This document shows positions 715-46,188 of a stretch of DNA of 64,000 nt, piece after piece; the first letter of the stretch is position 1, and the number at the start of each line of letters is the position of its first letter. Below the pieces are notes generated by a model. That model ran no database searches. It was not told where the DNA came from and saw nothing but the letters and a program-made list of their open reading frames with translations. This DNA is from an uncultured virus (IMG/VR IMGVR_UViG_3300031247_000001) (Duplodnaviria; Heunggongvirae; Uroviricota; Caudoviricetes): IMG/VR virus record IMGVR_UViG_3300031247_000001, one strand, 5' to 3'. A program made the translations under genes and the position numbers.

Positions 715-1623
715 GTCTCGGCTTCCGTAGGGGCCGAGCTCCCTTTGCACGAGAGCCTAGAGCTGCTCGAGCTGCGCTGGCCGGCCGTTGTCTCGGCTTC
801 CGTAGGGGCCGAGCTCCCTTTGCACTTCCGCAAAAGCGTCCGCGTCGGTCGGTTCCTCCGCCTGTCTCGGCTTCCGTAGGGGCCGAGCTCCCTTTGCACA
901 CCAGGATGCGGCGATTGCCGCGCGTCTCTTCTCGTCTCGGCTTCCGTAGGGGCCGAGCTCCCTTTGCACCAGGGGGCGCAGGGGTTTCAGGGCGGCGGCT
1001 TCCAGTCTCGGCTTCCGTAGGGGCCGAGCTCCCTTTGCACAGCCAGGGGACGCCGGCGCCGACAGATAGGACCGCGTCGTCTCGGCTTCCGTAGGGGCCG
1101 AGCTCCCTTTGCACGGTCCAAGGTCGCGGCGCGGATCGAAGGGCGGGCGGGGTCTCGGCTTCCGTAGGGGCCGAGCTCCCTTTGCACACGAGCTCGGGTT
1201 GGTGGGGATGTTAGCGCAGGCCGCGTCTCGGCTTCCGTAGGGGCCGAGCTCCCTTTGCACCCCTAGACGGGCTCGTGGCCACCCCGGTATGGCTCGTCTC
1301 GGCTTCCGTAGGGGCCGAGCTCCCTTTGCACGTCGAGCTCAACCGCCGGTACGAAACCGAGCCTCCGCAGTCTCGGCTTCCGTAGGGGCCGAGCTCCCTT
1401 TGCACTTTTCGTCACGTCGTGGGTTTGGCAGTTCCGCGGCAAGTCTCGGCTTCCGTAGGGGCCGAGCTCCCTTTGCACCAAAGGGCAGGGGCGAGGCGAG
1501 GCGAACTATCCGCCTGTCTCGGCTTCCGTAGGGGCCGAGCTCCCTTTGCACTCACGACGTCGGAGTGGGGCCACGGTGGAGGATCTCGTCTCGGCTTCCG
1601 TAGGGGCCGAGCTCCCTTTGCAC
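715..1623 (-). CRISPR. CRISPR array 1: 13 identical 36-bp repeats, 12 spacers of 34-39 bp
   Basis: Minus-strand repeat GTGCAAAGGGAGCTCGGCCCCTACGGAAGCCGAGAC with CTCGGC/GCCGAG hairpin; orientation from leader position and cas gene strand. Confidence 0.98.
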
Positions 1624-1680
1624 TTGTCCTGTTGTCATAGAGCGATTCCGCACACTTGCGGAGCGGTTTGCGAGCGGTTC
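1624..1680 (-). promoter_or_regulatory. Leader of CRISPR array 1
   Basis: 1626-1680 matches 19396-19450 (array 2 leader) at 53/55 bp. Confidence 0.9.
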
Positions 1681-1708
1681 GTTCGGAACGCTCCGAACGC
1701 CCCAATCA

Positions 1709-4700
1709 CTAGCTGATTTCCCGGCACATTCCCACCGACCCTTCGGGCGTCACCTCACCGCTCGCATCGGTGAGCTTTTTGGAGCGGGCTTGCGTGAGGT
1801 CATCGACCTGCCGCTGCAGGTCGCAGATGCGGATGGCGGTGTCTGCGCATCCAGGATACTCGGAATTCCAGTCGACCGCGTCTTTGGTTGTAATGTCGAG
1901 CCCCATCGGGGCCAGGTACTCCCGTAGATCTTGCAGCGTCGCGGTGCGCTCCAGGTTGCCGTCTCGGATGACTAGTTGGGTGGTTGAGTTTTGCAGGCGA
2001 AGTGAGATCTCGCCTGCGAGTGTTCGGGAAGAAGACAAGGAAAGTGGCCTTTCATAAGCTGCCCTTCGATCGAAACCGATCTCTCGGCAGAACACCCAAG
2101 ACCCCCGTCGTCGCCTCGCTGAGCCCGTCGTAGGACTCCCACTCGATCGTGAGCACGCGTGCGGGCCCGGTGATGGCGACCCCGTCGCCGAGGGCCACGC
2201 CATGAGACTGCCCGCACTCGCAAGAGCGACCCTTGTCGATGATCTGCAGCACGTCGTCGCAGCGCGTGCAGTTGAGGAGCTTCATCGGCTGGCGCTTCAT
2301 TGGAGCTCCAGCCAGAGCTTGCGGTAGAGCCGCACCTGGAGCTGCTCGTTGCCGCGGATCTTCCCGATCCGATTAAACTCCCCGATCGCCTTCTCGCGCC
2401 CGCGCCAGAGCACCTGCTCGTGGGGCTTCAAGCGGAGCACGTTGCCCCCGGCCTTACTGAGCTCGGTCCAGAGCCACCCAAAGCGGCGCTTGAGGGCCTC
2501 GCGGCATTCGTACTCCCAATGCGTCGCTGTCTCGGAACCGGTACGCGCGCGGGCGGCGGTCATGGGAGGGGCTCACGCTTCGAGCAGTAACGCTTGACGA
2601 GGGCTGAGATCTCGGGAGCCGGGTCTTCGGTCCGCACCTGGATCTCTTCCAGGGACGCGCTCTCGAGCGCCGCAAACACTTGCGGACGCTGGGATTGAGC
2701 GACGAGCAGGATGAGCCGGGCGTCCTTCAGGCGCTCGATGGCCGCGCGATAGAGGCGCGCCTCAGGGCTCGTCGAGTATGGCCGGAGGATCGAGAAGGCC
2801 TCGATCGCGGAATTCAGGTCAGAGAGGATTCGCGAGTTAGCCATTGAGCCTCGCGATCACGGTCGAGAAAAAGAACCACAGAAAGCTCACCGCGCCGATG
2901 GGCCAGATCAGCATCCCTCGCAGGAACTCCCCATTCGTCAGGGCCCCGTCGAGGAGATCGTTCGCGATGAGCATGGTGAGGCAGCCGATGAGCAGGTAAG
3001 CGGCAACGCCGAGGCAGATCCAGGTGATCATGAAAGCTTGATACTCCTCTCCTGCGCCGGGTCTTCCCCGGTGAGCTCGGTCATCACCACACCCAGGTCT
3101 CAGTGGCAGGGCCAAGGAGTTGCGAGATCTTCTTCTGCGTGTGCCGCTCTTCGTCGAAGGGCTCCACCTTGAACAGCTTGAGCGGCGGATAGAGCCGCAA
3201 CTCGAGCTCCGCTTGTGCGATGGCGTCGGCCGCCGTATGCGCCGATAGGATCCGGACGGCGACGTTCGGTTGATCGAGCAGGTGCGCCTGCAATGCTGGC
3301 GACGGCGACGCGAAGCACACGAATTTCGGAATGATTGCTCGATAGGTCACGAGACCCACGCTACACGAGACAGTTCCGAACTGTCAACAGTTTACGGATC
3401 TGGCTGTTTTCCCCTGCGAAGCTCAGTGAAGAGCCGCACGGCCATCACGAGTTTCTCCTGGAAGTCGCGCTCGGCGGCCGCGAGCGCAAGCCCGACGCTC
3501 GCTCCGCACCCGGCCCCCGCCGTGTGCTGGCCCTCGCCGCTCGTCAGGCCGTGCATGTGGATGAGCGCGGTCCACTCTGGCGGCGTCTCCTTGTCCTGGA
3601 TGTCGCGGTAGATGACGCGCACGCGGATCTTGCCGTGCGCCATCTGCCAGTGGACTTCCTTGGCAGTCGCCGTCGACTGCCGGAACTCCCATCCTCGCCA
3701 CCAGAATTTTTCGTGGGCTGCGATCCGCTGCGTCATCTCACTCGGGAAGCTCGACGAGCGAAGACCCCGTCGAGAAACCGAGCTCGATGTTTCCGTTGTC
3801 GGTCGCGAAGGTCACTGACCCACCGGTCGAGTTGTCGGTGACGCTCTTGACAGTCGCAAACTCCGTGCTCGGCGGGATCGTGTGCCCGTCGATCTGAATG
3901 CGCGTCCCGCCCGAGTTTTGCACGCCGAGCGATCGGCGAAAGCCGCCTTCCATCACGAAGGTGATGCTGAGCTTGTCGGCGGGGACGAAGCAGCTACGGA
4001 TTTTCTTGCCGATGAGGTTGTCGAAGTTCATGGGGTGGGTCCTTGGGTGGTGCCCTGCGGGCGACTTTTTCGAGTGAGCTTCGCTCGCCGTCGTTTGTTA
4101 CAGTGAGCGCATCTGCAGGAACCATACTCTTGCGGCAGTAGCCCGCACAAGAGGCAGAGCGCACCGGGCCACGCGCGACGCTGCTCGGGGGCTGAGGGCT
4201 TCGGAGATCGCGGTAGCCGCGCGCGAGCACCCCAGACGACGTGCATCGATCCGGCGGCGCCGAGCAGGGGTGCGAGTTGCAGCCTGAGCGAGGTAGCCTG
4301 CTGAGCCTCCTCGAACAGCTCCACGAGGGCACACTCGGGGCGATCCGGATCTCGCTCGTCGACAGAGTCATCGGCGCAGGGCTCTTGCTCGGGAGCATCG
4401 CCAGGGGCGCAGCCAAAGCAGCGACCTTTGTTCGTGGGCGAGATCAGCGTGGCGTCCCAACAGGAGCGACAGCGCCCGAGTTTGGCTCCCTCGAGAGTCA
4501 TGGCTTCGGGGCGCTCCGGAACCGGTCGTGCATCTTGCTTTCGGCGTCCAGCATCGCCTCTTCGATGGTGTCTCCCCACCCCGTCACGTATTGAGGCGGC
4601 TCCTGGTGCTGGCCGTCAGCAGGATCCGGTCGTTCCCGGAGAGCGTACCATTCCCCGGTCACCGGAGTTGTCATGGGGTGCCTATTACAATGCGTCATGG

Positions 4701-4872
4701 TGCCCCGATAAAAGTTCGGGTAGGCGAACAGCATCAGCGTGCAACTCACGTCTGGATCGCCGACGTTCCCCTTGAGGAAGCGGATGCTCATGTTGAGGTT
4801 CGTGGTCTGGCGTGTGTAGCGCTGCCAGGCCTTGATGATGCGACCAAAGATCACGTCGGTGCTGGTGGACAT
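1709..4872 (-). other. Run of about 10 small, translationally coupled hypothetical ORFs (e.g. 2052-2300, 2297-2563, 2560-2844, 2837-3031, 3084-3359, 3392-3736, 3738-4031, 4028-4501, 4498-4872)
   Basis: Abutting or overlapping stop/start codons typical of phage early regions; no recognisable family. Confidence 0.65.
3367..3387. promoter_or_regulatory. Operator-like GAGACAG-N7-CTGTCAA overlapping a minus-strand TTGACA -35 box
   Basis: Same arrangement at 18160-18180; related sites at 21402-21430, 23491-23519 and 40067-40098. Confidence 0.65.
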
Positions 4873-5885
4873 CAGAGTAGCCCTCGGCCTGGGTTGTCTT
4901 GGAAGAGGTTCGCTCGGCGAATGTAGCCACGGAAGCTCTCGTAGCTCTTGTGCCGGGAGTGCTGCATGATCTGCCACTCCGCGCGCCCCGCGCGCGCGGC
5001 TTCCGTGATGAATCCTGCCCGAAGCGAGTGCCCGCTAAACTCCACTCCAGGCTGGTCCGGCGCGATCCCGGCTTTCCGCGCCCAGGTCTTCACGACCTCG
5101 TTGATCTCACGGTCGGGGATCCGCTCGGGCACGAGTCCTCCGAAGTACGTGCGCGCGAACAGCGGATCGTCGGGCGCCGCGTGCGAAGAGGCCTCGAGCC
5201 AGGCGCGTAGCGCGGCGACCGGACAGAGGTCGGGGTTCTGGGCGGGCTCGATGGGGATCGAAGCGCCCAGGCCCTCTTGGTCGGTCTTCGAGCTCGCGAT
5301 CGTGAGCACGAGCCCTTCGGTTGTAAACACGGCGTGCCGCCGATCGAAGCCCGCGACTTCGCTCCGCCGAAGTGCGCCGGCCCAGCCGACGAGGAGGAGC
5401 GCCTTGTCCCGCAGGGCGATAGGGTCGGTCGCCGGCATGCGAGCGACGATCTTCTCGAGGTGCCGCACGAGGAGCGGCGGGGCCTGCTCGGGAGCCACGC
5501 GCAGGGTGTTCTTGACCTTCTGGACGTGCTGCTGCACGTGCACCGATTGCCGGGGCGGCACGTAGCCCCTGACCTTGTGGTAGTGCGAGATCGCTGCCAT
5601 GGCCCGCTCGATGGTGGCGGGCTTCTGGGAGCCGCCAGGACGCTCTGGATCGGCCAGGTAGGTCACATACAGGATCACGGTCTGCGGGGCGGCAGGGAGC
5701 GGCCGGTGCCCCCAGGTCTCGCACCAGGCACTGAACCGCTTCCAGTCGCCCTCGTAGGCCCGCTTGGTGTTGGCCGGCGTCCCCGCCCGCTGGAACTCCA
5801 AGCTCCGCGCGTAGAGCCGCTCGGCCTCGAGCCGTTGGGGCGGCGAGAGGTGCAGGGGATCGGGGCGGCGGAGGGAGTCGCTCAC
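4872..5885 (-). CDS. Tyrosine recombinase/integrase, Cre-like
   Basis: RDKALLLVGWAGALRRSE (R), SKTDQ (K), GHSLRAG (HxxR), SRHKS...GY (H, Y); N-terminal SAM-like domain. Confidence 0.95.
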   Translation of the reverse strand: MSDSLRRPDPLHLSPPQRLEAERLYARSLEFQRAGTPANTKRAYEGDWKRFSAWCETWGHRPLPAAPQTVILYVTYLADPERPGGSQKPATIERAMAAISHYHKVRGYVPPRQSVHVQQHVQKVKNTLRVAPEQAPPLLVRHLEKIVARMPATDPIALRDKALLLVGWAGALRRSEVAGFDRRHAVFTTEGLVLTIASSKTDQEGLGASIPIEPAQNPDLCPVAALRAWLEASSHAAPDDPLFARTYFGGLVPERIPDREINEVVKTWARKAGIAPDQPGVEFSGHSLRAGFITEAARAGRAEWQIMQHSRHKSYESFRGYIRRANLFQDNPGRGLL

Positions 5886-6545
5886 TTAGGTGGAGGATAC
5901 CGCCTCTCGAGGGCTTGAGCGAGCGCGCCGTCTTCGATGTTGTAGAATTCACCCTCGAATCCGCCGCCCATGTTTCGAGGGGAGTCGAGGGCGTTGAAGA
6001 GCATTTGGCCTAGGCGTAGCTGTGGGGCGCGAAACCAAGCAGCGGCGACTCGACGCAGGGCGGCGACCTTGCCTCGGGCGGTAGTGGCGCGATCCGGAAG
6101 CGCAGGATCCGCTGGGAGCTCGTCGAGCTTTTTCAGGTAGGCGCGCTCGAGTAGCTCGATAGGCAAGGCATCGGCGATGCGCTGCAAGTCGGGATCGTCG
6201 CCCCAGTACTGCATTTCCTTGATGAGGCGCGTCACGTCGTCGCTGGAGGTGATGAAGGTCAAGATGGTGTCTCCGGGTACTCTTCGAGCAGCACCTGCAT
6301 GACGGTGGTGGCTTGGGCGAGTGCGTCGAGGTGGTTTGATCCCTTTGCGTAGTTGACCAGTCGCATCGGATATTCTCCCCGACGCATTCGTCGATGGCGC
6401 TCTTCGCGCGACATTTCTCCGGGATGGGTAAACGTAACGACTACCTCGCCCTCGCGGAGGGCTGGTTTATAGGTCCAGCCGCGCGCCGTCCACTGCTCCA
6501 AGATCTCGAGGATGCGGAGGGCTTGTTCGGGGGTGGGAGTGGGTT

Positions 6546-7079
6546 TCATACGCGGCTCCGTTCGAGGCGATCGTGCCCGCCTGCGGCGATCTCTTCGAAG
6601 AGTGTATCGAGTTGCATATGGACGGCCCAGCGTTTGTCGTCACCGCAGGCATCACCCATTAGCCGGATCACGACCTCCTCGAGGTCCTGCCATCGGCGCC
6701 CTTTCCACAGTGAATCGCTCAGGGCAACGATCAACTCTTCGGCTGAGCAGGACATGTGACGCCACTGCGCGTGAGTGAGGCAATGGCGCGCGAGCGAGAT
6801 GTCGATCTCCCGGGACACGAGATCGTAGCCAGCGCGCTCGTGCAGGTTACCTGGCTCATCGATCTCATCAGGGTGCAAGATTTTACCGGCATCGTGCAGG
6901 ATTACTCCGGCACGCACTCGATCATCTCGGATTGAGTCGATCTCTAAGTGGAGCAGCTTGTCGAGGATCAACTCGGCGGCTTCCATGACTAGTTCGACGT
7001 GACGCATCAGACGCGGGGGTGGCCCGAGCACTAGGAATTTACGCCAAATCGCTGCAACATAGTCGGAGTCTGGGTTCAC
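6546..7079 (-). CDS. HD-domain metal-dependent phosphohydrolase
   Basis: RHV...ILHDAGK...HE..G...H...ALSD motif. Confidence 0.85.
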   Translation of the reverse strand: MNPDSDYVAAIWRKFLVLGPPPRLMRHVELVMEAAELILDKLLHLEIDSIRDDRVRAGVILHDAGKILHPDEIDEPGNLHERAGYDLVSREIDISLARHCLTHAQWRHMSCSAEELIVALSDSLWKGRRWQDLEEVVIRLMGDACGDDKRWAVHMQLDTLFEEIAAGGHDRLERSRV

Positions 7080-8533
7080 GACTTCACCACCTGCAGATTT
7101 CGGCGCCTCAAGATCTTGCCCACCTGCCGGATGCGCGCCTCGTAGTCGGCGTCTACTTCCTGCTCGTCGTCCTCCCAGCCGAGCTCGGCCTCGAGCAGCG
7201 TGCGGAGCTCACCGAGGTTCTGGGAGTCGGTCGAGGCGTAGCCGAAGTCGCCGAGGGTCTCATTGCCCTCGGCCTCGTCGGCCGCGTACAAGATCTCCAT
7301 CGCGAACTGCCGCGCTTGGTCGGGCTTCATCACCCGCTGGCCCTTGATCTCGACCGTGACGTGGTGCGGATCGGCCGAGACGAGCAGCGAGAGCAGGGTG
7401 TTTAGCGTGACGACGTTGTCTTTTTTCTTGGGAGGCATTCAGATTACCAGCAGGTGTAGTCGAAAGTCCGTGATGAGCCCCGGCGCGCCCTTGAAGCGCT
7501 CGAGATCGGCCCCCGCGAACACGATGCCCTGGGAGGTATCGTCGCGCAGCATGCGCGCGATGTAAGTGTCGGGCCAGTCGGAGATCTCACGCGAGCCGAA
7601 CTTCTTGTCGACCCAGAGCGTTTTCGGTCCGCCCGAGCCCGAGCAAAAGCCTCGCCGGTGGTGATACTGCTCGCGCACGTACTCGGGCAAGTTTTTGGGA
7701 GCGGTATCGCCAATCGCGATGGCTTCGGTGTTGGTGGTCCACCAGATGAGGAGCTCGTTCTTGGGGGCGGCGGGCGGTGTCATCCGGCATCCTCTTCCCA
7801 AGATCCGCCGCAGATCGGATCATCCATGGGGATTCTCGTGCTGCCCGCGCAGAGCTGCATCGTGGCCTTCTTGCCAGGCCCAGGCCTTGATCTCGTCCAG
7901 CTCCCGAGGGGAGGTCCATTTTTGCTTGAGCTGATGGAGCTCTTGTTCGAGCTCGGCGATTCGAGCGTCGGCGAGCTGAAGCTCGCGCTGAATCTTGCTC
8001 ACCCGAACCCCCGAATCCTCGCATGCCGGGTCGCCACGCGCACAGCACGGCAAGAGACCTTCGCGCCGCCATGGAGCGTGAGCGTGACGTTTGCTTTGCG
8101 ATCACTCGGACAGAGAAACCACCAGGCGAGGGTTGCCAGATCCCACCAGCGGAGGGAGACGACGAGCCAGACCGAATCGTCGGCGGAGCTCACGAGGGCC
8201 AGATCCTTGGTGCCAGCGAGGTCGAGCTCGATGCTTTTGAGTGCGCTCAAGAGTGCCTCCGGATCCCGTCGTGGAGATTGTAGTGATCGTTGAAAAACGG
8301 CACGTCGCTAGCGATGCAGAACCATTCGTGCCCGTGGCGTTTGCGTCTCCCGCAGCCCTCGCAGAAACTCGCGGCCTCGACCCGATCGAGGCGCATGATC
8401 TTCCGCACCGTCGATCGAAATTCGGCAACGCGCGCCCTCTGGCGGAGCAGGTGACACGCCCAGTAGGCCAGGAGGTTCCCGATGATCGCGAAGGCGCCTG
8501 CGCGGTGAAACTGAAACACGGCTTCGGTGTGGG

Positions 8534-9706
8534 TCATGCGGATTGCTGCTCTTCTTTCATCTCGATGGGCTTCCAGGTCACGCGCGAGAGCACGGCCTTG
8601 TTGATGCCCTTGTACGTCTCGTGCTTCTTGCACCTCCCCTTGATGGCGAAGCGCATCCCCTGCATGTCGGGCTTGGGCGCGATCCCGGTCGCAAACCAGG
8701 TGAGCTCGTGCCCCGCGTCCGTGCGGAAGGTGCAGATCGCCTTGCTCGTGTTGAAGCGCTCGTCGTGGTGCAAGTAGTGCCGGATGAGCGTCACCTCGCC
8801 CTTGAAGACTTCGCCCTTCTCGACCGCGAAGCCCTCGGGGCGGAGCGGCGCGATCTTCTTCTCGACCTGTTTACCGAGGAAGCGGTTGTAGGCCGCCGGC
8901 GCGCTGGCGAGAAGCCCAGCGTGCTTGCCGATGCCCGGGGCCTTGACGGCGAGGGAGAGGTTCCAGAGGTACTCGGAGGCGTGCTCGCCGGGGCTGGCGG
9001 CCCAGGCGACGATGGCGTGGGCGGCCTCGATCTGGTCTTCGGTGGGCTGCTCTTCCTCCCATTGCTTGGGGCTCTTGGCGGCGAGCGGATGCGGTGGGTT
9101 AGCGAGCCACCAGGCGTCGTCCTTGGTGGCCCCAGGCTCGCTCGCCTTCACGAAGCCATAACGCTCGGTAGAGGCCACCGCGCACGCAACGAACGCCAGC
9201 GGCGCGACCTCCCAGTACCCGCCGTACCCGCCCCAGTGCTCGTCGTCGGTCTCCTCGCCGATGGCTTTGACGAGCTCGGCGAGCGCGACCATCTTCGAGG
9301 GATCGGTCATCAGGAAATCGGCGAGGCAGTTCCGGCCGATCTGGATGAGCGCGACGCCGTACTGGCGGAGGAGAAACGTCTCCTTCCGCGAGCGCTTCTT
9401 GCCGCAGTGAGAGCAGAGCGGCTCGGCGTGGCGCCAGGACTCGTCGAGATCGTGCGTCTCGCCCGGGCCGCGCACGACGAGGTTGCCGTCCTTGGTGTGC
9501 TCGATGCGAGCGGCAAACTCGTAGCCGTTCACGGCGGGGAGATCGCCGATGGTCAGGCGCGCGCAGGTGAGCGTGCGCTTGTCGTCGATGAGGGTCGTCG
9601 TGCCCGGGACTTCTTCGCAGAGCACACCGGCCGTGCGCGCGAGCTTGTCGAGGCGCTTGTAGACCTTCGGGAGGGCTTCTTGGGGGACGAGGAGCGAGAG
9701 CGTCAT
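8534..9706 (-). CDS. Phage-type hypothetical protein with CxxC...C zinc site and possible C-terminal OB-like domain
   Basis: CSHCGKKRSRKETFLL...QIGRNCLADFL; 390 aa. Confidence 0.6.
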   Translation of the reverse strand: MTLSLLVPQEALPKVYKRLDKLARTAGVLCEEVPGTTTLIDDKRTLTCARLTIGDLPAVNGYEFAARIEHTKDGNLVVRGPGETHDLDESWRHAEPLCSHCGKKRSRKETFLLRQYGVALIQIGRNCLADFLMTDPSKMVALAELVKAIGEETDDEHWGGYGGYWEVAPLAFVACAVASTERYGFVKASEPGATKDDAWWLANPPHPLAAKSPKQWEEEQPTEDQIEAAHAIVAWAASPGEHASEYLWNLSLAVKAPGIGKHAGLLASAPAAYNRFLGKQVEKKIAPLRPEGFAVEKGEVFKGEVTLIRHYLHHDERFNTSKAICTFRTDAGHELTWFATGIAPKPDMQGMRFAIKGRCKKHETYKGINKAVLSRVTWKPIEMKEEQQSA

Positions 9707-9714
9707 GGTGGATG

Positions 9715-9741
9715 CTACGCGGGCGAAGCCGGAACCTTCCC
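9715..9741 (-). promoter_or_regulatory. GGGAAG-N16-CGTAG promoter motif (first of 9 copies)
   Basis: Recurs upstream of many start codons; see findings. Confidence 0.75.
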
Positions 9742-21024: not shown

Positions 21025-21052
21025 CTACGAAACTCCCGGTGGAGATCTTCCC
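21025..21052 (-). promoter_or_regulatory. GGGAAG-N17-CGTAG promoter of the cas12m-like gene
   Basis: 9 nt upstream of the ATG; same motif as other viral genes. Confidence 0.7.
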
Positions 21053-21228
21053 TCATCCGAGGCGGCCTACCTGATGATCGATCCGGAGCTGGGCGGCGAT
21101 GTCCCAGTACCCGATGTACACGAGCTCGGATTCCGTCCTCCGCGGGTCGGCCGCGTAAGCCCGCTCGATCATCTCCCGCCACTCGAGCGACTTGTCCTCG
21201 ACCCGCACGCTCACCCGATCCCAGCGCC

Positions 21229-21399
21229 TCAACGAGGCAGCTCCCGGATCTGGTCGACGATGATTTGGGTGTAGGTCACCTGGCGGCGGCTCTTCTTCTC
21301 GATGCGCTCTCGAGCATCCTTCAGGTGCTCGAAGTCTTCGAGGGGCATGCGCACCGTGAGTACGTGGTGGCCTTTCTTCAGCGATTGCTTCTTCTGCAT
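21229..21399 (-). CDS. 56-aa ribbon-helix-helix (Arc/CopG-like) regulator, absent from the ORF track
   Basis: MQKKQSLKKGHHVLTVRMPLEDFEHLKDARERIEKKSRRQVTYTQIIVDQIRELPR; preceded by TTGCCA-N17-TAGTTC and GGAG. Confidence 0.65.
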   Translation of the reverse strand: MQKKQSLKKGHHVLTVRMPLEDFEHLKDARERIEKKSRRQVTYTQIIVDQIRELPR

Positions 21400-21514
21400 C
21401 TCTATCTCCGAACTATCACGCCACTATCTCAATGGCAAGAGTCATGGTAGGGTTAGTGACCATGGAGTAGACCCGCGTTGCCCTGCGCGGCACCTTTAAC
21501 GGGCCCTCACCCTT

Positions 21515-22192
21515 TCAGGTGAGCCACTGCCAGATCGCTCCGGCCCAGGCCGCGTAGCCGCGGGCCACCGGATGAATGCCGTCCGGGCCGCGCGGAAGGT
21601 CGAGGTTTTCGGAATGGAAAATCGAGATCCGGGGCTTCAACTTCGGCAAGTGAATGGCCCGCTCGCTCTCGATGAGCGCCCGCACGCTGACCAGGGACAC
21701 CGCGGCCGGAGGCAGCGTCGGCGGCGCAATCCAGGCAATCGCACGCGGACCGACGCTCTCAACCAACGTGAGGAGCTCGCCCGCGTAGGGCGTCTGGCGC
21801 GCGCCGATGTCCTCGCCTGGCTGGGGCTGCATATAGGCGTCGTTCGTGCCGAGGCTGATGAGCACGATCGTGGGCTGGAAGGCTGTCAGGGCCTGATCGA
21901 GGGGAGCCGACTCTGCCCACTGATCGATGCGGGTGCCGACCGTCGCCATCGACTGAAAGGCGATGCCGTTGTCCTGGCAGAGCGCCCCAAAGGGCGCGGC
22001 GAGACCGACGGCAAGGGAGTCGCCGAGCAGGAAGACTCGGTCACCGGCGCGGAGCGTGGGCGCGCCCAAGATTTCCACCAGGCCGACCGCTGTCAGCGTT
22101 GCGGCACCGAGGCCGACGTAGATCCATGCGCGGTTTGGGGGCATCGGTTTCTGGACTCGCTCGGGGATCCGAGGGTACGATGAGTCTGCCAT
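21515..22192 (-). CDS. SGNH/GDSL hydrolase with N-terminal membrane anchor
   Basis: LLGDSL, SLGTND, DGIHP blocks; start uncertain (22192 or 22144). Confidence 0.88.
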   Translation of the reverse strand: MADSSYPRIPERVQKPMPPNRAWIYVGLGAATLTAVGLVEILGAPTLRAGDRVFLLGDSLAVGLAAPFGALCQDNGIAFQSMATVGTRIDQWAESAPLDQALTAFQPTIVLISLGTNDAYMQPQPGEDIGARQTPYAGELLTLVESVGPRAIAWIAPPTLPPAAVSLVSVRALIESERAIHLPKLKPRISIFHSENLDLPRGPDGIHPVARGYAAWAGAIWQWLT

Positions 22193-24604: not shown

Positions 24605-27562
24605 CTAAGGGACGACCACGCGATAGAACCCCGCCTGGAAATTCGCCGAGTACAGTAGGTGGTGCGCTCCGTCATAGGCGAGCTGTCCACCCGAGCTCAG
24701 CCCAGGACTCGTGAGCGGCGTCCAGGGCGCGCCCGCTGCCGCAGGCGCCGTGAAATACGGGTGCAGGTTGCTCCCATAGCTGAAGTAGTAGTTATTGCTC
24801 AGGTACAGCGTCGTGCCGTCACTCGCGAGGCCTCCAGCAAGCGGACCCGTCCCAGCGATCAGCGACCACGAGGCGCCATCGGGGCTACGGAAAACGCCAT
24901 CGGAGGCCGCTAGGTAGAATGTCCCATCTGCGGCGCGGATGATCTGCGAGCCCTGAGGGTGCGCGTCCTTGATCACGGGAGTAATCTGCGCCCACGTCGC
25001 CCCGGCATTCGTCGTCCGCCAAAAGTTATTGGACGACGATCCCCAAAGCCACGTGCTCGAGTTGTCGAGGAAGTAAACGACTTGGCCCTCGGTGCCGTCC
25101 CAGCTCGGATCGCCGTTCACTAGGTGCCAGGTAGCGCCGCCGTCCGTCGTCTCACCGATGCAGTTCTGGTTGTAGGGAGCCGCGCACACGGCGTGGAAGG
25201 TGAGCAGCAGGTGCAGGTGGTTACTCGGGTCCATCGCAAACACGTTCGCGAAGTTGTACTGCACGACATTCGCGAGCTCGGGTTGGGTCGGTGGCGGCCA
25301 GATGGGATCCCAGTCGACTCCGCCGTTCGTGGACTTGTAGGCGCCGTTCGAGTTGCCCTGGTAGCCGCTGTTCGTGTAGACGGTCCCGGTATCGACCGGA
25401 TCGACGACCATCGTCCAGTTCACACCGACATTGATCTGAGCGCTGCTTCGGCCGGACACCGACGACCACGTCGCGCCGCAGTCCGGGCTCTTCCAGAGCT
25501 TCTGCGACATGGTGCCGAGGTAGATCGTCCCGTTGTTCGTGGGATCGATCGCGAACGCAAACACGCCCGTGAGCGTGGTCCCATCGAAGCCCGCGAGCAC
25601 TTGCGGCGGGGTGATGTTCTGCCACGTCCCTGAGCCAGCGAGCGCGTCGCACGCTCCGACGCCGGAGGGCTGACTGAGCGTGACCGTCACGGCGCTCGTC
25701 ACCGAAAGGCCGCCCGAATCCTGAATGGTGACCACCAGAGAGTAGCTGCCGGGCTGACTGAAGGTCGCGGTCGTGTTCTTGGCGGCGTTGCTGCCGTTGA
25801 CGGAGAAATTCGCCGTACCGGGCGGCGTGCCCGTCGTGGCCCAGGTGTAGGTCAGAGCCGGCTCTCCACCATCATCCGCACCGAGCGCGCTGAGCACGCT
25901 AGTGGTCCCCGTCGTCGGATTGGGGCTCGCTGAGGCCGCGGTCGCGACAGTCGGCGCCTGATTGATTGGCCCTCCCGTGGCAAATACCTCAATGCCGCTC
26001 ACCTTGGCGTTGTCCTTGACCCCGACGAAGCTCACCGCGATTTGCCCGCCCGCAGTCGCGGTCGCAGGAAAGTCGAGCGCGACGGCTTTGTTCTGCCCAC
26101 CCGCTGCGGCAAAGATGTCGAAGCTCGTCAGGACTTGCGCGCCATTGATGAATGCGTTCAGGAGGCGACTATTGGCAGCATTGAAGTAGATCTCGGCGAA
26201 GTGGAGCCGCACGGCGTACGCGCCGCCCGCCAATAAGCCCGGGAAGGTGTAGACCGAGTTTCCGTAGCGCTCGCTCTGGTAGACGGCCGCGGGAGCGGCA
26301 TTGGCGACTCCCGCGGTGGCGACCGCATTGCTCGTCGAAAAACCGGAGCCGCCCGAGAAAAATTGATCCGCCGTAAACGGCGTGACGGCGCTTCCTCCGC
26401 AGTCGATGTGGTACGCGATCGGCGGCGCGGCGGAGACGGTGACGCTGGCGGTCCCGCTGACTCCGCCGCCCGTCGCCGTGACCGTGAACGGTCCGCCCGT
26501 CGAGCTACCTGCCGTGAACAGCCCGCTCGCGGAGATCGCGCCGCCGCCCGTGACCGCCCAAGCAATGCTCGGCTGACTGCTCATCGCGGCCCCGAATTGA
26601 TCGGTCGCCGCAGCCCCGAACTGCTTCATCGCAAGCGGCGCGACTGTCGCCGTCAGCGGACTCACCGTGAGCGCGGAGAGGGTTTGGGTGACGACCACGC
26701 TAACCGTGCTCGTCGCGGTGAGGCCGTCCGCATCGCGGATCGTGGCGGTCAGGACGTAGCTGCCCGCTCCACTGAAGGTGGCGACCGTGTTCTTTGCCGC
26801 GTTGGTCGCGTTCGGGGCGAAGGTCGCGCCAGTAGCTGACCAGGTATAGGTCAGCGCTGGCTCTCCGCCATCGTCGGCCCCCAGCACACTCGCAGCGACG
26901 CTCGCGGCGGTCACCGGGCTCGTCGCTATAGCAGGCGTCGCGACGCTCGGGGGCTGGCTCAGCACCGCACTGCCCGACAGGATCTCGATGCCGCTCACCT
27001 TCGCGTTGTCCTTGACGCCCACGAAGCTGACGACGATCTTGCCGCTCGGGTTGGCGGTCGCAGGAAAGTCGCGCACGAGCGCTTTGTTCGCGCCGCCGGC
27101 GGCGACGAAGATGTCGAGGCTCGTCAGCACCTGCGTGCCGTTTACCGACGCATTGAACAGTCGGCTGTTGGCGGCACTGAAGTAGATTTCCGCGAAGTGC
27201 AGCCTCACCGTGTAGGTCCCTCCTACCGTCAGGGACGGGAACGTGTAGCTCACATTCCCGTAGCGCTCCGATTGGTAGACCGCCGCGGGAGCGGCATTGG
27301 CGACTCCCGTGGTGGCGACCGCATTGCTCGTCGAAAAACCGGAGCCTCCAGAGAAAAACTGATCGGCCGTGAATGGGCTTACCGCCCCGGCGCCGCAGTC
27401 GACTTGGTAGACCGGAGTGAGCAGCGCTTGCCGCGACTGGCTCACCCCACGACTCTGGCTCGCCGCGCCCGGGCTGCAGCCGAATGAGCCGAGTGCTGCT
27501 GCGACCATCGCGAGCGCCAGCACCAAATAACGAACCCCGCAGAATGACGATTTGTGGGACAT
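24605..27562 (-). CDS. Secreted lipoprotein: two malectin-like domains, PKD/Ig-like domains, BNR/Asp-box beta-propeller
   Basis: Signal peptide + FGC lipobox; duplicated VYQSERYG...VRLHFAEIYF...AKVSGIE; SPDCGATW, STNGGVDW, TTDGGATW Asp boxes. Confidence 0.88.
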   Translation of the reverse strand: MSHKSSFCGVRYLVLALAMVAAALGSFGCSPGAASQSRGVSQSRQALLTPVYQVDCGAGAVSPFTADQFFSGGSGFSTSNAVATTGVANAAPAAVYQSERYGNVSYTFPSLTVGGTYTVRLHFAEIYFSAANSRLFNASVNGTQVLTSLDIFVAAGGANKALVRDFPATANPSGKIVVSFVGVKDNAKVSGIEILSGSAVLSQPPSVATPAIATSPVTAASVAASVLGADDGGEPALTYTWSATGATFAPNATNAAKNTVATFSGAGSYVLTATIRDADGLTATSTVSVVVTQTLSALTVSPLTATVAPLAMKQFGAAATDQFGAAMSSQPSIAWAVTGGGAISASGLFTAGSSTGGPFTVTATGGGVSGTASVTVSAAPPIAYHIDCGGSAVTPFTADQFFSGGSGFSTSNAVATAGVANAAPAAVYQSERYGNSVYTFPGLLAGGAYAVRLHFAEIYFNAANSRLLNAFINGAQVLTSFDIFAAAGGQNKAVALDFPATATAGGQIAVSFVGVKDNAKVSGIEVFATGGPINQAPTVATAASASPNPTTGTTSVLSALGADDGGEPALTYTWATTGTPPGTANFSVNGSNAAKNTTATFSQPGSYSLVVTIQDSGGLSVTSAVTVTLSQPSGVGACDALAGSGTWQNITPPQVLAGFDGTTLTGVFAFAIDPTNNGTIYLGTMSQKLWKSPDCGATWSSVSGRSSAQINVGVNWTMVVDPVDTGTVYTNSGYQGNSNGAYKSTNGGVDWDPIWPPPTQPELANVVQYNFANVFAMDPSNHLHLLLTFHAVCAAPYNQNCIGETTDGGATWHLVNGDPSWDGTEGQVVYFLDNSSTWLWGSSSNNFWRTTNAGATWAQITPVIKDAHPQGSQIIRAADGTFYLAASDGVFRSPDGASWSLIAGTGPLAGGLASDGTTLYLSNNYYFSYGSNLHPYFTAPAAAGAPWTPLTSPGLSSGGQLAYDGAHHLLYSANFQAGFYRVVVP

Positions 27563-33003: not shown

Positions 33004-33711
33004 CTATCCGACGTTGAGAATCGACACTTGGTAGCGATTGACGGTCTGCCCGGCGGCCGTCCCGCTCGCATGCAGCACGTGCTGAATCGTGTCGCCGTGA
33101 TTGGGCTTAAACCGAAAGCCCTGCGTGAGCTGCATCAGCTGCGACACCGTCTCCTGAGTGTAGGCCATCAGCTGCGGGCCCTGCGTGCCGGTGCCGAGCA
33201 GAGCCCCGTTGACGGTGGTGTCGAGCTCGATCGTGCTGCCGACCGGGGAAGAGGAGCCGATGACCATCTGTGCCTGAATCAGGAAATCTTTTCCCGACGG
33301 CCCGTTGTAGGTCATGATCCCAGTCGTCGTGTCGACTGAGAAAAACGGGTTACTGTTGATGTTCGCGTAGAAGCCGGCGCCGGATGGGAGCGCCTGCCAG
33401 TTGCCGGTCGAGATGACGAAGTTACTATACCCCGTCGAGGTGAGCTGCACGAGCGTCGAGTAGTCGCCCTGGGCGTTCTGCTTGAACCAACACCCGCCGC
33501 CAGCGAGCGGCACCACGAAGGTATCGGCGCCGGCGAGGTTCGGTTGGGCGGAGCTCGAGTTGTAGCGGTACACCGCTTGATTGGCGACGCAGTAGCACTC
33601 CGCGCCGTCGCCGAGCGCCGACACATCCAAACTTTCGACCGACTTCGAGGTACCGCTGACGGTGGCAACTACCATCGAGCAAAAGGACCCGGCCGAGCGC
33701 TTATTGGGCAT
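33004..33711 (-). CDS. Putative spike/receptor-binding protein, paralog A2
   Basis: Shares MPNKRSAGSFCS start and NRYQVSILN end with A1. Confidence 0.55.
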   Translation of the reverse strand: MPNKRSAGSFCSMVVATVSGTSKSVESLDVSALGDGAECYCVANQAVYRYNSSSAQPNLAGADTFVVPLAGGGCWFKQNAQGDYSTLVQLTSTGYSNFVISTGNWQALPSGAGFYANINSNPFFSVDTTTGIMTYNGPSGKDFLIQAQMVIGSSSPVGSTIELDTTVNGALLGTGTQGPQLMAYTQETVSQLMQLTQGFRFKPNHGDTIQHVLHASGTAAGQTVNRYQVSILNVG

Positions 33712-33764
33712 GACTCAGCGAAGATTAGCCGTAGGGCGCCCACGCCCGCAACTTTTTGCCGGGA

Positions 33765-42053: not shown

Positions 42054-43454
42054 TTACTGCAGCAGCACCGACAAGGTCATGCGGGTCACGGTGATGTCCG
42101 CGCCCGTCTTCGTCCCGAATGCCGCCTGGATCGTGTCTCCGGGAGCGAGTACGATCGTGCGCTCGGAGCTCAAGATCTGTGGCGCCGACGATGCCCCGGT
42201 CTCCGTCGTCTGCGTGCCCGGGAGGAAGCTCGTCGCCGGATCGGTGCCGAGCACATCGCCATTGTGCGCGATGACGCCCCAGACCGGACCGCTCGAGGGA
42301 GCCGCCGGAGCCGAGACCGTGTTGCTCTCGAGGTTGACGGCGGTCTGAGACAGGAGCCGGCCGTTCAGGACGGCGCCGGTGATGAGGTTGATGTCGGTGA
42401 AGCACAAGATGACGCCATTGAAGGTCGCCGTCGCACCGATCGAGACGTTGCCCGAGACCTGCCAGAAGACATTCTTGGCGAGCACTCCGCCGCTCAGGAT
42501 CACCGACTGAGCCGCCGACATGGCTAGGTTCCCGGTGATCTGCAGAATGAACACGTCGGTCGCGCTGCCGCTCAGCGTGACGCTCGTCGGGATCGTGACG
42601 CCCGTCGTCCAGTGATGCACACCGGGCGCCAGCGTGAGTCCGCCGATGTTGCCGGCGCCTTCGTTGGTGAAGTTCGCGGTGCGTCCGGCGGCATCCGTAT
42701 ACGCCGCCATCATGTCCGTCACCGCGACCGTCAGCGTCGCCGGAGTCGGCGCAGAATAGTCAGCCGCGTAGACCTTGCCCGTCACCTGCGCAGAGGTCGA
42801 GAACTGCCCGCTGCCATCGAGCGTGAGCGCGAAGCCCGTGATGGCCGTGTGCGCAATGGGGCTCACGCCCATGTCGCCGGTGATGACCGAGGTCGGCACG
42901 TTGGTGATCCCGCTCTTGGCGAGGATCGTGTAGTTGCCGGCCGTGCCGAGATTGACAGCGCCCGGCGTGAGCCCGCCGCCGCCTCCAGCGCCCAGATACA
43001 GCGAGCTGTCGAGGCGCACGATTACTCGAGCACCGACGACGCCGTCGTAAGTGATGACGCCGCCGAGGGCCGTGAGGGAGTAGCCCGCCGGCGTCCCCGC
43101 CGGCTGGAACGCAAAGAACGCGGTGTCCGCCGCTGCGAAGTTGGTCGTCCCCGAAGAGGGCACGGTATTTTCAGCGGTGCCCACGATCTCCACGAGCGCT
43201 TCGGCGCCGGTGCCGTTGTCGAGCAGCACCCAGCGACCGGGGCCCGCGAGCGGCGCCACGATGGTGACGTTGTCAGGAGTCGCGGTACTCGACTTCTGAA
43301 GATTGTAGAGCCCGCGGTTTTCGAGGACGAAGCAGAGCGCTCCGTCGGGGAAAATGTCGGTGATGATGTTGCGAAGACTGGTCCCGTCGCCGGGAGGTCC
43401 AATCACGGCGCGGATGCTGAGTCGCAACGCGACCGCTGCTTTGTCTTCGTTCAT
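42054..43454 (-). CDS. Putative spike paralog B1 with inserted ice-binding-like (DUF3494) domain
   Basis: VNLGTAGNYTILAKSGI...AYTDAAGR...LAPG...NVFWQV...NGRLLSQTAV. Confidence 0.85.
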   Translation of the reverse strand: MNEDKAAVALRLSIRAVIGPPGDGTSLRNIITDIFPDGALCFVLENRGLYNLQKSSTATPDNVTIVAPLAGPGRWVLLDNGTGAEALVEIVGTAENTVPSSGTTNFAAADTAFFAFQPAGTPAGYSLTALGGVITYDGVVGARVIVRLDSSLYLGAGGGGGLTPGAVNLGTAGNYTILAKSGITNVPTSVITGDMGVSPIAHTAITGFALTLDGSGQFSTSAQVTGKVYAADYSAPTPATLTVAVTDMMAAYTDAAGRTANFTNEGAGNIGGLTLAPGVHHWTTGVTIPTSVTLSGSATDVFILQITGNLAMSAAQSVILSGGVLAKNVFWQVSGNVSIGATATFNGVILCFTDINLITGAVLNGRLLSQTAVNLESNTVSAPAAPSSGPVWGVIAHNGDVLGTDPATSFLPGTQTTETGASSAPQILSSERTIVLAPGDTIQAAFGTKTGADITVTRMTLSVLLQ

Positions 43455-43464
43455 GGGGTTTCCT

Positions 43465-44181
43465 TTACGCGATCAGCACGGACAAGGTGCCGCGCGACAG
43501 CACGAGCGGGAGCGCGACGCCGCTCGTGAATACCATCTGAAGCGTGTCGCCTGGCGCGAGCGCGAGCGTGCGCTCGGATGAGACGACCTGCGGCAGATTC
43601 GTGCCTCCGGCCTCGGTCACCTCGGTGCCGGGGAGGAAGCTCGTGGTCGCGTTCGTGCCGATCAGATCGCCATTGTGAGCGACCGCGGCCCAGATCTCGC
43701 CCGATGCCTCGGCATCGTTGATGAGCACTGAGGCCGTGAGCGTCACCCGCGCGCGCACCGCTTCGGCGCCGTTGTAGGTGATGAGACCGCCGGGTTCGCT
43801 CAAGGCCCAGCCCGCGGGCGCTCCGGTCGGCATCCAATCGAACGCCGATCCCGAGACCGCCTTGAAGGTCGGCACATCGGACGACGCGATTGCATTGGTG
43901 GCCGTCCCGACGATCTCCACGAACGCCGCCGCGCCCGGGCCTTCATCGAGCAGCACCCAGCGGCCGGGGCCCGCGAGCGGCGCCACGATGGTGACGTTGT
44001 CGGGGGTCGCGGTACTTTCCTTCTCGAGGTTGTAGAGGCCCCGGTTTTCGAGTACGAAGCAGAGCGCGCCGTCTGGGTAGATGTTCGTGATGATGTTGCG
44101 AAGACTCGCCCCATCACCGGGCGGCCCTATCAGGGCGCGGATGCTGAGCCGCAACGCGACCGATGCTTTGTCTTCGTTCAT
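43465..44181 (-). CDS. Putative spike paralog B2 (no insert)
   Basis: Colinear with the N- and C-terminal parts of B1. Confidence 0.65.
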   Translation of the reverse strand: MNEDKASVALRLSIRALIGPPGDGASLRNIITNIYPDGALCFVLENRGLYNLEKESTATPDNVTIVAPLAGPGRWVLLDEGPGAAAFVEIVGTATNAIASSDVPTFKAVSGSAFDWMPTGAPAGWALSEPGGLITYNGAEAVRARVTLTASVLINDAEASGEIWAAVAHNGDLIGTNATTSFLPGTEVTEAGGTNLPQVVSSERTLALAPGDTLQMVFTSGVALPLVLSRGTLSVLIA

Positions 44182-44251
44182 GGTCTTTTTTCCTTGTTGA
44201 CTACCGATGCTATCCGGAGGAGGGGCCGGAGCGCAAACTTCTGAGGCGATC

Positions 44252-45088: not shown

Positions 45089-46188
45089 CAGGCGTCCCTC
45101 CGGCCCTGAATGAGCTTGTACGCGCCGACCGCAACCACCGCGCCGAGGGCGACCAGCAGAAGCGCTTTACCACCATTGATCGCGTCCACTCGCGGCACCA
45201 GATCTGAAGTCGGCCCGCTCGTGTCCACGTCCATGGCCGTCTTCGCGAGCTGTTTCCGCCCGCGGGAGTCGCGCGTGTACGGCAGCGGGGTCGGAAAAAT
45301 GTTGACCGTCGTCGCGCCGGACCCGGCGCCGCCGGTGACCGTGGCCGTAAAGTTCCCTTGCGTGTAGGCGTCCGTGCTGGTCGAGGTCGGACTGCGCACC
45401 TCGGTCGCCGTGCGAGTGGGGCTCCGCACCTCGGTGCTCGTCCGCGTTGGGCTCCGCACTTCGGTCCGCGTGGGACTCCTTACGTCGCTTCGGCCCCCAG
45501 CCATGCGTTGCCAGCCGGGGAGGGCCGCCGCGCTCGGCGCGAGCAGCGCCGCTTGCGCGCCCGGCACCGTTGTCGCTTGCACCGCCGGAGTCGCTGGGAT
45601 CGAGAGCGCGACGGGCTGCATCTGCGCGCTGAATGCGCTCGGGAAAGATCCCGACGCGGGGTGCGGGCGGCCGTTTGCCGCGGGCGCAACTTCGAGAATG
45701 TACACGAGCGCGCCGCCCACTTGGGTGGCGGCGGAATTGAGCGAGGCGGTGCCCGACTTCGGATCGGTCTGATCACGAAGCTTGAGCCAGTAGAGGAAAT
45801 AGATCTTGGGCGGGCTCTTCGTGTCGGCCTGCGCGTAGACGGCTTCGGTGTGATCGTACGCGAAGGGCGTGCCCTCGAAGACCGTCTTCACCGCGGTCAT
45901 CTGCGTCAGCACGGGCGATACGACCGCGAGCGACTGCACCTCGCTCGAGGCGGTGCTGGCGACCGATGCAAGCTGCGCATCGCTGACCACGAACGCCTGG
46001 TAGTCCTGAGCGGGAGTCGCTTCGCTCCAGGCCGCGTCCCCCGTCTGCGTCGCCCACTCGGTGTAGACGAGGCTCGGCGCGCTCGAGACGAGCGCAAGGA
46101 GCGCCTGATCGGCGAGCGGGAGCGCGGCGTCGTCGGCGCCGAGGCCCGAGAGGTTGTTCCGGTGGTAGGACGAGCCGAAGCGGATCAT
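45088..46188 (-). CDS. Membrane-anchored structural protein with (E/D)VRSPT repeats (GLG family)
   Basis: LSGLGA near the N-terminus; 4x VRSPT; C-terminal TM. Confidence 0.65.
   Translation of the reverse strand: MIRFGSSYHRNNLSGLGADDAALPLADQALLALVSSAPSLVYTEWATQTGDAAWSEATPAQDYQAFVVSDAQLASVASTASSEVQSLAVVSPVLTQMTAVKTVFEGTPFAYDHTEAVYAQADTKSPPKIYFLYWLKLRDQTDPKSGTASLNSAATQVGGALVYILEVAPAANGRPHPASGSFPSAFSAQMQPVALSIPATPAVQATTVPGAQAALLAPSAAALPGWQRMAGGRSDVRSPTRTEVRSPTRTSTEVRSPTRTATEVRSPTSTSTDAYTQGNFTATVTGGAGSGATTVNIFPTPLPYTRDSRGRKQLAKTAMDVDTSGPTSDLVPRVDAINGGKALLLVALGAVVAVGAYKLIQGRRDA

Follow-up and report, generated by a model that had tools for sequence, protein, structure and literature searches.

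The DNA analysed here is a stretch of 64,000 nucleotides (nt), referred to below as the window, from an uncultured soil virus of the class Caudoviricetes (IMG/VR record IMGVR_UViG_3300031247_000001). It contains two CRISPR (clustered regularly interspaced short palindromic repeat) arrays and a single gene for a Cas12m-like effector. The array at 715-1623 on the minus strand (array 1) had been called an orphan in an earlier note on this DNA. It is instead a satellite array, that is, a genuine second array of the cas12m system: the only cas12m gene, 17.8 kb away, is adjacent to array 2, and array 2 has the identical repeat. We consider, with a probability of roughly 0.7, that a type V-M (Cas12m/Cas12u1) system is carried by this phage and that array 1 functions as its second CRISPR array, by the following mechanism. 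Array 1 would be transcribed on the minus strand from an unrecognised promoter in its leader and/or by read-through. Cutting of the transcript would yield CRISPR RNAs (crRNAs) whose 5' handle is the retained 3' stem-loop of the repeat, and the single Cas12m, whose gene is 17.8 kb away, would be loaded with them. With its N-E-D active site this effector would most likely bind DNA flanked by a protospacer-adjacent motif (PAM) without cutting it, silencing competing relatives, for example their collagen-like fibre genes. The leader-plus-repeat unit was probably copied from the effector-adjacent array in an ancestor, as a remnant in a related phage suggests, after which the two units per genome may have been held near-identical by recombination or unit replacement, and the spacers would have turned over completely and independently in each unit. 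The spacers themselves would come from adaptation machinery not encoded by the phage, for which a host Cas1-Cas2 working in trans is the most plausible candidate; of all the steps of the mechanism this one has the least support.

Two arrays and a single effector gene

Array 1 consists of 13 identical repeats of 36 bp and 12 spacers of 34-39 nt. Its leader end is at 1623 and its trailer end at 715, the latter 14 nt from the stop codon of a convergent plus-strand gene (167-700), so that the array is located at the 3' end of a long block of co-directional minus-strand genes and abuts the convergent gene. Array 2 (18555-19393, minus strand) has 12 identical repeats and 11 spacers of 35-40 nt, and its trailer end is likewise 14 nt from the stop codon of a convergent gene (18245-18541). 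The two arrays have the same repeat, as had been claimed, and all 25 copies in the window (13 in array 1 and 12 in array 2, trailer repeats included) were identical, each with a stem-loop adjoining the spacer. When both strands of the window were scanned at up to 13 mismatches no further repeat-like copy was found, the only hit being one with 13 mismatches at 45362. The claim that the arrays have no spacers in common also held, in that no 10-mer was common to any two of the 23 spacers. Array 1 has the features by which a CRISPR array is recognised, namely at least three near-identical repeats of 23-50 bp and unique spacers of similar length.

The effector open reading frame (ORF) at 19462-21015 on the minus strand encodes 517 amino acids (aa) with the RuvC residues N275, E416 and D504 and a C-terminal zinc ribbon, and array 2 lies 68 nt behind it. 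The distance of 17.8 kb given earlier was reproduced when measured from the leader of array 1 to the stop codon of this ORF. The protein matched PDB entry 23vw_A, deposited as Cas12m (E 1.4e-37, residues 125-512), and the PADLOC profile Cas12u1 (E 6.4e-50, profile positions 139-530 of 533), and N275, E416 and D504 align with the D, E and D of the solved Cas12m; these matches place it in the Cas12m/Cas12u1 family. Among Pfam families only Cas12f1-like_TNB was hit, below the cut-off, and NCBIfam gave no match to the effector. In the part of the literature available to us, N-E-D RuvC triads are listed for Cas12m clades 3 and 4, and the same text leaves these two clades open (PMC10442227). The Cas12m proteins with D-E-D, H-D-D and N-D-D sites whose tests are described in another partly available source bound DNA and did not cut it, and the Cas12m PAMs given there are T- or C-rich (PMC11013384). 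At 517 aa the effector would be a smaller natural DNA binder of the Cas12m type than the characterised proteins of about 600 aa.

Relatives of the effector are encoded in two IMG/VR records with which the window is syntenic over most of its length. The first, G001, is 135 kb long with direct terminal repeats and an estimated completeness of 100%, and its effector is about 70-74% identical; the second, G002, is 111 kb long, estimated to be 82% complete, with an effector about 80% identical. Only one Cas12-type zinc ribbon was found in each record. Relatives in PLSDB plasmids were distant (22-31% identity), and one GenBank virus record matched at 27%. No inverted copy of the repeat was detected in the window by the scan of both strands, which was the only search made for a trans-activating crRNA (tracrRNA) anti-repeat. 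Directly upstream of cas12m there are two small ORFs (21053-21406, minus strand), of which the one at 21233-21406 looks like a ribbon-helix-helix regulator by eye; neither had a hit in Pfam, PADLOC or NCBIfam.

Identical repeats and near-identical leaders are what assemblers confuse, and the genome might in truth have only one array, the other being produced in assembly by a mis-join or by the collapse or duplication of a repeat region. The junctions between the arrays and their flanks were checked in the Logan contigs of the best-holding sequencing run (run X1); one rhizosphere run contains 92% of the sampled words of the window. Runs X2 and X3 contained small shares and yielded short pieces only, and no RNA run was listed as containing this DNA. 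Each of the four junctions was found on a separate contig of run X1 (2-744, 1594-5475, 5446-18584 and 19364-20000+) at a depth of 14.4-16.8, and four separate junctions at similar depth argue against a mis-join. The interruption of the Logan contigs within both arrays fits an artefact, and the bins of low cover (668-2001 and 18677-19343) are uninformative either way. Against it, the two leaders differ at four positions, the flanks upstream of them are unrelated, and independent contigs of other metagenomes have an array at the same site as array 1. We therefore regard an assembly artefact as extremely unlikely.

The leader module and the origin of array 1

The leaders of array 1 (1624-1680) and array 2 (19394-19450, beginning 11 nt after the cas12m stop codon) are both 57 nt long and on the minus strand. 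They differ at four positions (53/57 identical), and two of these are the bases adjacent to the repeat, without which the previously stated likeness of 53/55 is obtained. In an alignment of 11 leader-repeat junctions there was no conservation upstream of GAACCGCTCGCAAA and strong conservation over the 57 nt from there to the repeat. The stretch was conserved in 10-11 loci, which are, besides leader 1, that of array 2 and 8-9 loci of related phages, and its conserved blocks are CCGCTCGCAAA, a short hairpin whose loop reads G(T/C)AAGT, and AATCG.TCT.TGACAAC, all of them present in leader 1. It sits between cas12m and the array in the window, in G001, in G002 and in a further related locus (L038). 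The eight repeats beside it in G001 are identical and those further off decay, and the uniformity of the repeats on this side indicated that the stretch is the leader and that both arrays of the window are read on the minus strand. It is thus one-sided, conserved among related arrays and sets the polarity, as a leader does.

Of the six base pairs in the leader hairpin, four change on both sides, and the covariation score for the hairpin together with the repeat stem was reached by 6 of 500 shuffles. For the same two elements 86.4% of the cells pair compared to 27-41% when the partners were slid, a contrast that is inflated given that the structure was derived from the same sequences. The leader motifs did not occur elsewhere in the window, and no Rfam family (CRISPR-DR included) matched positions 500-2300. 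As far as can be judged by comparing sequences, this conservation shows that the 57-nt leader is a functional and portable module, and it may act as a promoter, as a processing element or as an integration signal, the last being close to the proposal in the earlier note that the conserved 55 bp would be read by an adaptation complex in trans.

Just upstream of leader 1 the earlier note had seen an 8-bp hairpin. It is indeed there, between the leader and the stop codon of the preceding ORF (1680-1699, minus strand; the transcribed strand reads CGTTCGGA-GCGT-TCCGAACG), and forms part of the minimum-energy fold. It has no U-tract and no counterpart at array 2, and the whole stretch of 171 nt folds no better than shuffled sequences (z 0.16). 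The string GGGAAA-N17-CGTT, taken in the same note for a variant of a viral promoter, does occur at 1696-1722 on the minus strand. As a promoter it was rejected: allowing up to one mismatch, it was found 5 times in comparison to 2.73 expected, a number reached by 15 of 100 shuffles, and it overlaps the stop codon (1709-1711) of the upstream ORF. Two other candidates were dropped as well. Sites resembling those for sigma-54 or IHF in the leader gave only partial matches on inspection by hand, and the 8-mer AATCAGCT, apparently shared at a distance of 38 nt upstream of each leader, might have been what is left at array 1 of a cas12m tail, an idea that was abandoned since the flanks align no better than shuffles.

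The history of the array-1 site could be followed in related phages. Positions 167-21000 of the window are colinear with 6998-28951 of G001, which has no array at this site; in G001 the convergent gene on the plus strand ends at 7722 and is followed immediately by one on the minus strand. The site is occupied in two other related metagenome phages, one of which carries a whole array of 13 repeats (locus L052); of the array in the other, locus L050 contains the leader side and locus L061 the trailer side. The shared site is the end of the gene block containing the integrase, where it abuts the same convergent acidic zinc-ribbon gene. The last ORF of this block in the window, upstream of leader 1, is at 1709-2203 on the minus strand, although it probably begins further downstream than this; on inspection by eye its C-terminal part is similar to the gene at about 8545-8795 of G001, and it has tblastx matches in L050 and L052. 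Both of the other arrays have variant repeats and no spacer in common with the window, so that these positional homologues show complete spacer turnover, with flanking genes that are 40-80% identical.

Before its leader, L050 keeps about 100 nt of a decayed cas12m 3' end (local score 71, compared to a shuffle maximum of 27). Judged by its sequence, this remnant is probably the footprint of copying from an effector-adjacent unit. Between the two units of the window the homology ends exactly at the 5' edge of the leader; upstream of it the flanks align with a score of 19, where shuffles average 18.1. Leader 1 is 80-82% like its positional counterparts and leader 2 is 73-82% like its own. The two leaders of the window are closer to each other (53/57) than to these counterparts. 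The second array is thus older than this phage, and the pattern points to concerted evolution that homogenised the two units, or to one unit having recently been replaced with a copy of the other. The earlier proposal that a leader-repeat unit had been duplicated was thus right in kind, array 1 having its own copy of the leader; the duplication was neither recent nor private to this phage, as the arrays at the same site in L052 and L050/L061 indicate. Three loci from one metagenome set (L043, L051 and L054) have three different leader-array junctions with the same repeat type and without cas12m upstream, so it seems usual in the clade that a genome or population has several arrays with leaders.

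Repeats were also seen outside leader-bearing arrays in the related phages. In G001 three repeat-like copies with spacers of 14 and 25 nt (L002:9821-9974) are located directly upstream of the cas12m ATG at 10001, the last of them separated by 29 nt from the start codon, and the cas12m gene of the window has no such copies. At a contig end of G002 (C1:110353-110630; L014/L034) there are six degenerate repeats on the strand opposite to the cas12m-adjacent array, with spacers of 17-34 nt and no 57-nt leader. Single repeat copies are found between genes or at their ends in related contigs (L032/L036/L056, L039:5995-6030, L060 at about 1593-1628 on the reverse strand, and L037/L055). In an 85-kb contig one such copy is separated from the main array by about 21 kb, and the copy in L060 follows a homologue of ORF 21053-21232 of the window, the small gene that directly precedes cas12m. 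An ORF of 497 aa from the PD-(D/E)XK nuclease family was observed in the 85-kb related contig, a few kb past the trailer of its 27-repeat array (L053:622-2115, minus strand), probably a phage recombination nuclease.

Spacer acquisition and spacer targets

None of the 89 scanned ORFs of the window belonged to the Cas1, Cas2 or Cas4 families, and models of these three proteins gave no match in the six-frame translations of G001 and G002, for which the controls were positive. Similarly, no Cas families were found in 57 ORFs flanking related arrays. The window ORFs, G001 and G002 thus present the locus free of cas1, cas2 and cas4 that is typical of type V-M. According to the available part of one source, V-U1 to V-U5 loci typically have no acquisition genes (PMC11013384). 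Spacer uptake in trans is a default inference drawn from the missing genes, just as in V-U1 and in phage CRISPR systems at large. For its simplest version, in which a host array has the same repeat, we found no support, as no host CRISPR array with a matching repeat was present in the representative genomes searched. A degenerate 30-nt pattern of the repeat was found in 6 stretches of viral contigs and 27 of metagenome contigs. Three observations are in favour of real spacer turnover, namely the polarity of repeat decay in G001, the different spacers in positional homologues and the 25 perfect repeats of the window.

The same data may be read in a different manner, with arrays that are merely carried along. 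Array 1 would then have arisen by recombination between co-infecting relatives, through an exchange of arrays or the replacement of a unit, spacers would be inherited or swapped as blocks, no acquisition of the Cas1-Cas2 type would take place in the lineage, and the leader would be conserved as a promoter or processing signal. This is consistent with the clade's complete genome, in which no adaptation genes were found, with the failure to find the cognate repeat in prokaryote genomes, and with the homogenisation of leader and repeat within a genome, which shows that recombination acts on the units. No gain or loss was apparent in the arrays that occurred in two samples, which were colinear, and a portable promoter would explain why the leader accompanies arrays in several genomic contexts. 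On the other hand, the array in G001 has the usual polarity, uniform at the leader end and decaying at the far end, and the full spacer turnover between positional homologues took place where flanking genes are still 40-80% identical. In addition, the 25 repeats are perfect, the spacers have lengths of 34-40 nt as in adapting arrays, and no promoter consensus was seen in the leader. Taking these points together, we find it unlikely, though deserving of serious consideration, that the arrays are cargo of this kind.

A target was found for one spacer of array 1 (970-1004, minus strand), which is antisense to a collagen-like Gly-X-Y repeat. It matched G001:64349-64385 at 33 of 35 positions, inside an ORF of 761 aa composed of collagen repeats. 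Weaker matches are numerous in the G001 and G002 fibre genes, and the 5' flank of the protospacers is ...CCC. This was the sole significant match for the 23 spacers in all the related loci that were fetched. Three Logan contigs of run X1 also matched the region of this spacer at 90% or more. The spacers of both arrays gave no match to GenBank phages and only chance-level matches to PLSDB plasmids (E 0.2-0.8), and exact 24-nt seeds from the two leader-proximal spacers had 0 hits each in IMG/VR.

The matched fibre family is carried by the phage clade itself, and this raised the question of whether array 1 serves gene control and not defence, with a Cas12m that only binds DNA repressing the phage's own genes or those of the host, for example fibre genes. 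The N-E-D RuvC site of the effector and the silencing by binding that is known in its family would suit such a role, as would the three matching contigs in run X1 and the solo repeats and short-spacer mini-arrays that relatives bear beside genes, including directly before cas12m. However, none of the 23 spacers matched the rest of the 64-kb window at up to 9 mismatches, the best match is in another phage with 2 mismatches, and 22 of the 23 spacers have no match in relatives. Full-length variable spacers that turn over completely fit immunity better than hard-wired regulation, and a regulatory function for array 1 is in our opinion highly unlikely.

A broader and rather speculative reading, which we hold to be distinctly improbable, joins several of these elements. 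Leader and repeat would together form a portable 'array seed' that is planted at several sites, kept uniform by recombination and filled with spacers without a cognate adaptation module in the phage or in sequenced prokaryotes, and the arrays, solo repeats and mini-arrays would make up a control network of a binding-only Cas12m that touches the fibre genes of the clade. If this were true, uptake would go either through a heterologous host Cas1-Cas2 that reads the leader or by a route free of Cas1.

Several observations weigh against array 1 being a functional array that acquires spacers and silences competitors. Only 1 of the 23 spacers has a target, this target is a low-complexity collagen repeat, and even the best match has two mismatches; the phage's own fibre genes, outside the window, could match the same spacer as well. 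No sigma-70-like site was found in 600-2400 or 18400-21600, and no promoter was recognised there. The degenerate 30-nt repeat pattern had 0 hits in 185,579 prokaryote species, each represented by one genome, and in the same genomes no cellular relative of the effector was confirmed, with two peptide patterns as the only queries. In their overlapping parts the arrays found in two samples were colinear, and no difference at the leader end was visible in the contigs, which are cut. The order of the spacers and their allocation to the two arrays are those of the source assembly alone. The window is part of the phage genome, and cas1-cas2 might be encoded elsewhere in that genome. Finally, a repeat-like inverted copy may abut the left edge of the window, as the contig of run X1 covering 2-744 bears 34 letters that match 18695-18728 on the opposite strand; this match beside position 2 comprises 30 nt of repeat and 4 further nt.

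Known systems and other features of the window

The closest known systems are the type V-M Cas12m loci of bacteria and plasmids (MmCas12m/Cas12m2, GoCas12m and MsCas12m; PDB 23vw), which have the same effector family, a single effector and no adaptation genes. The likeness extends to a 36-bp repeat with a stem-loop beside the spacer, a non-canonical RuvC site and the expected PAM-dependent binding and silencing of DNA. The system described here differs from them in that it belongs to a phage of the 100-kb class, has an effector of 517 aa compared to about 577-614 aa for the solved proteins, and is known from its sequence alone. It also has two arrays 17.8 kb apart, each with a 57-nt leader conserved in the clade.

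There is nothing unusual in CRISPR biology about a second array that shares the leader. Bacteria may have several distant arrays with the same repeat and homologous leaders that are served by one cas operon and fill independently, such as CRISPR-1 and CRISPR-2 of E. coli; these genomes encode Cas1-Cas2 themselves, whereas no known adaptation gene was found in the clade of the window. Virus-borne mini-CRISPR arrays without adaptation genes of their own were reportedly described by Medvedeva et al. in 2019 and are thought to act in conflicts between viruses. They are said to copy the repeat and leader of the host and to use host Cas proteins throughout, and the window differs in that the phage brings its own effector and its repeat was not found in prokaryote genomes.

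Published work already covers type V-U systems in phages and one phage Cas12m. In the available text of a 2026 preprint, the myxophage MV-1 encodes MvCas12m, a protein of 610 aa with a D-E-D site that is termed the first phage Cas12m, together with one array of eight spacers (10.64898/2026.09.14.751636, Li & Ni). As in the window, a phage Cas12m stands beside an array there, with no cas1/2/4 and no tracrRNA recognised, and no confident targets are reported for the spacers; the main text, as far as available, does not contain the word 'leader' and mentions no second array (10.64898/2026.09.14.751636). The accessible portion of the survey of huge phages by Al-Shayeb et al. (2020) includes type V-U and describes almost all systems as being without Cas1/2/4; spacers target structural genes of other phages, and the use of host Cas proteins is proposed where the repeats resemble those of the host (PMC7162821). 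In contrast, the repeat of the window occurred in no prokaryote genome searched, and its arrays have 12-13 repeats compared to the median of six given for the huge phages in that portion of the survey (PMC7162821). No description of leader-bearing satellite arrays in phage V-M systems was found in the literature, in a search that was not aimed at this question.

The one thing that this locus usefully adds is a leader module of defined extent, 57 nt, from a clade in which no adaptation genes were found. How V-M/V-U1 arrays and most phage arrays gain their spacers is an open question, since adaptation genes are lacking. The clade offers a compact object for testing it, with a sharply bounded leader of three conserved blocks, a covarying hairpin, at least two sites per genome and complete spacer turnover between relatives.

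The identification of the virus as a phage leans on the IMG/VR classification with terminal repeats, on the PHROG hits of G001 (collagen-like tail-fibre proteins, a DnaB-like helicase and a thymidylate synthase) and on the tyrosine integrase and the DUF551 protein encoded in the window. The HK97 capsid (PF05065) and Terminase_6N (PF03237) families were not found in G001 and G002. The synteny of the window with G001 breaks at 33711-33760, where the left side continues to about 40.5 kb of G001 and the right side to the end of G001 (135.4 kb), running backwards, so that the gene order of the window differs from that of G001 at the terminal repeat of the latter.

Some further features were noted elsewhere in the window. 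At 15039-15682 on the plus strand, an ORF for a MazE/AbrB-type antitoxin (79 aa) is followed by an ORF of the Fic/DOC family (127 aa), which looks like a pair of the Phd-Doc type and has homologues at a different genomic place in G001, at about 86.6-87.2 kb. Genes for tRNA-Ala(CGC) and tRNA-Leu(AAG) stand side by side at 16650-16813 on the plus strand, with an ORF for a PTH2-type peptidyl-tRNA hydrolase (16829-17164) and one for a dTDP-4-dehydrorhamnose 3,5-epimerase (15942-16517) as neighbours. Internal direct duplications of 100-300 nt with 72-90% identity were seen at 25988-27283, 42117-44188 and 61101-61922; they are located within or between large ORFs of the secreted type, such as a malectin/PKD protein (24605-27562) and an ice-binding-like protein (42054-43454) and its neighbour.

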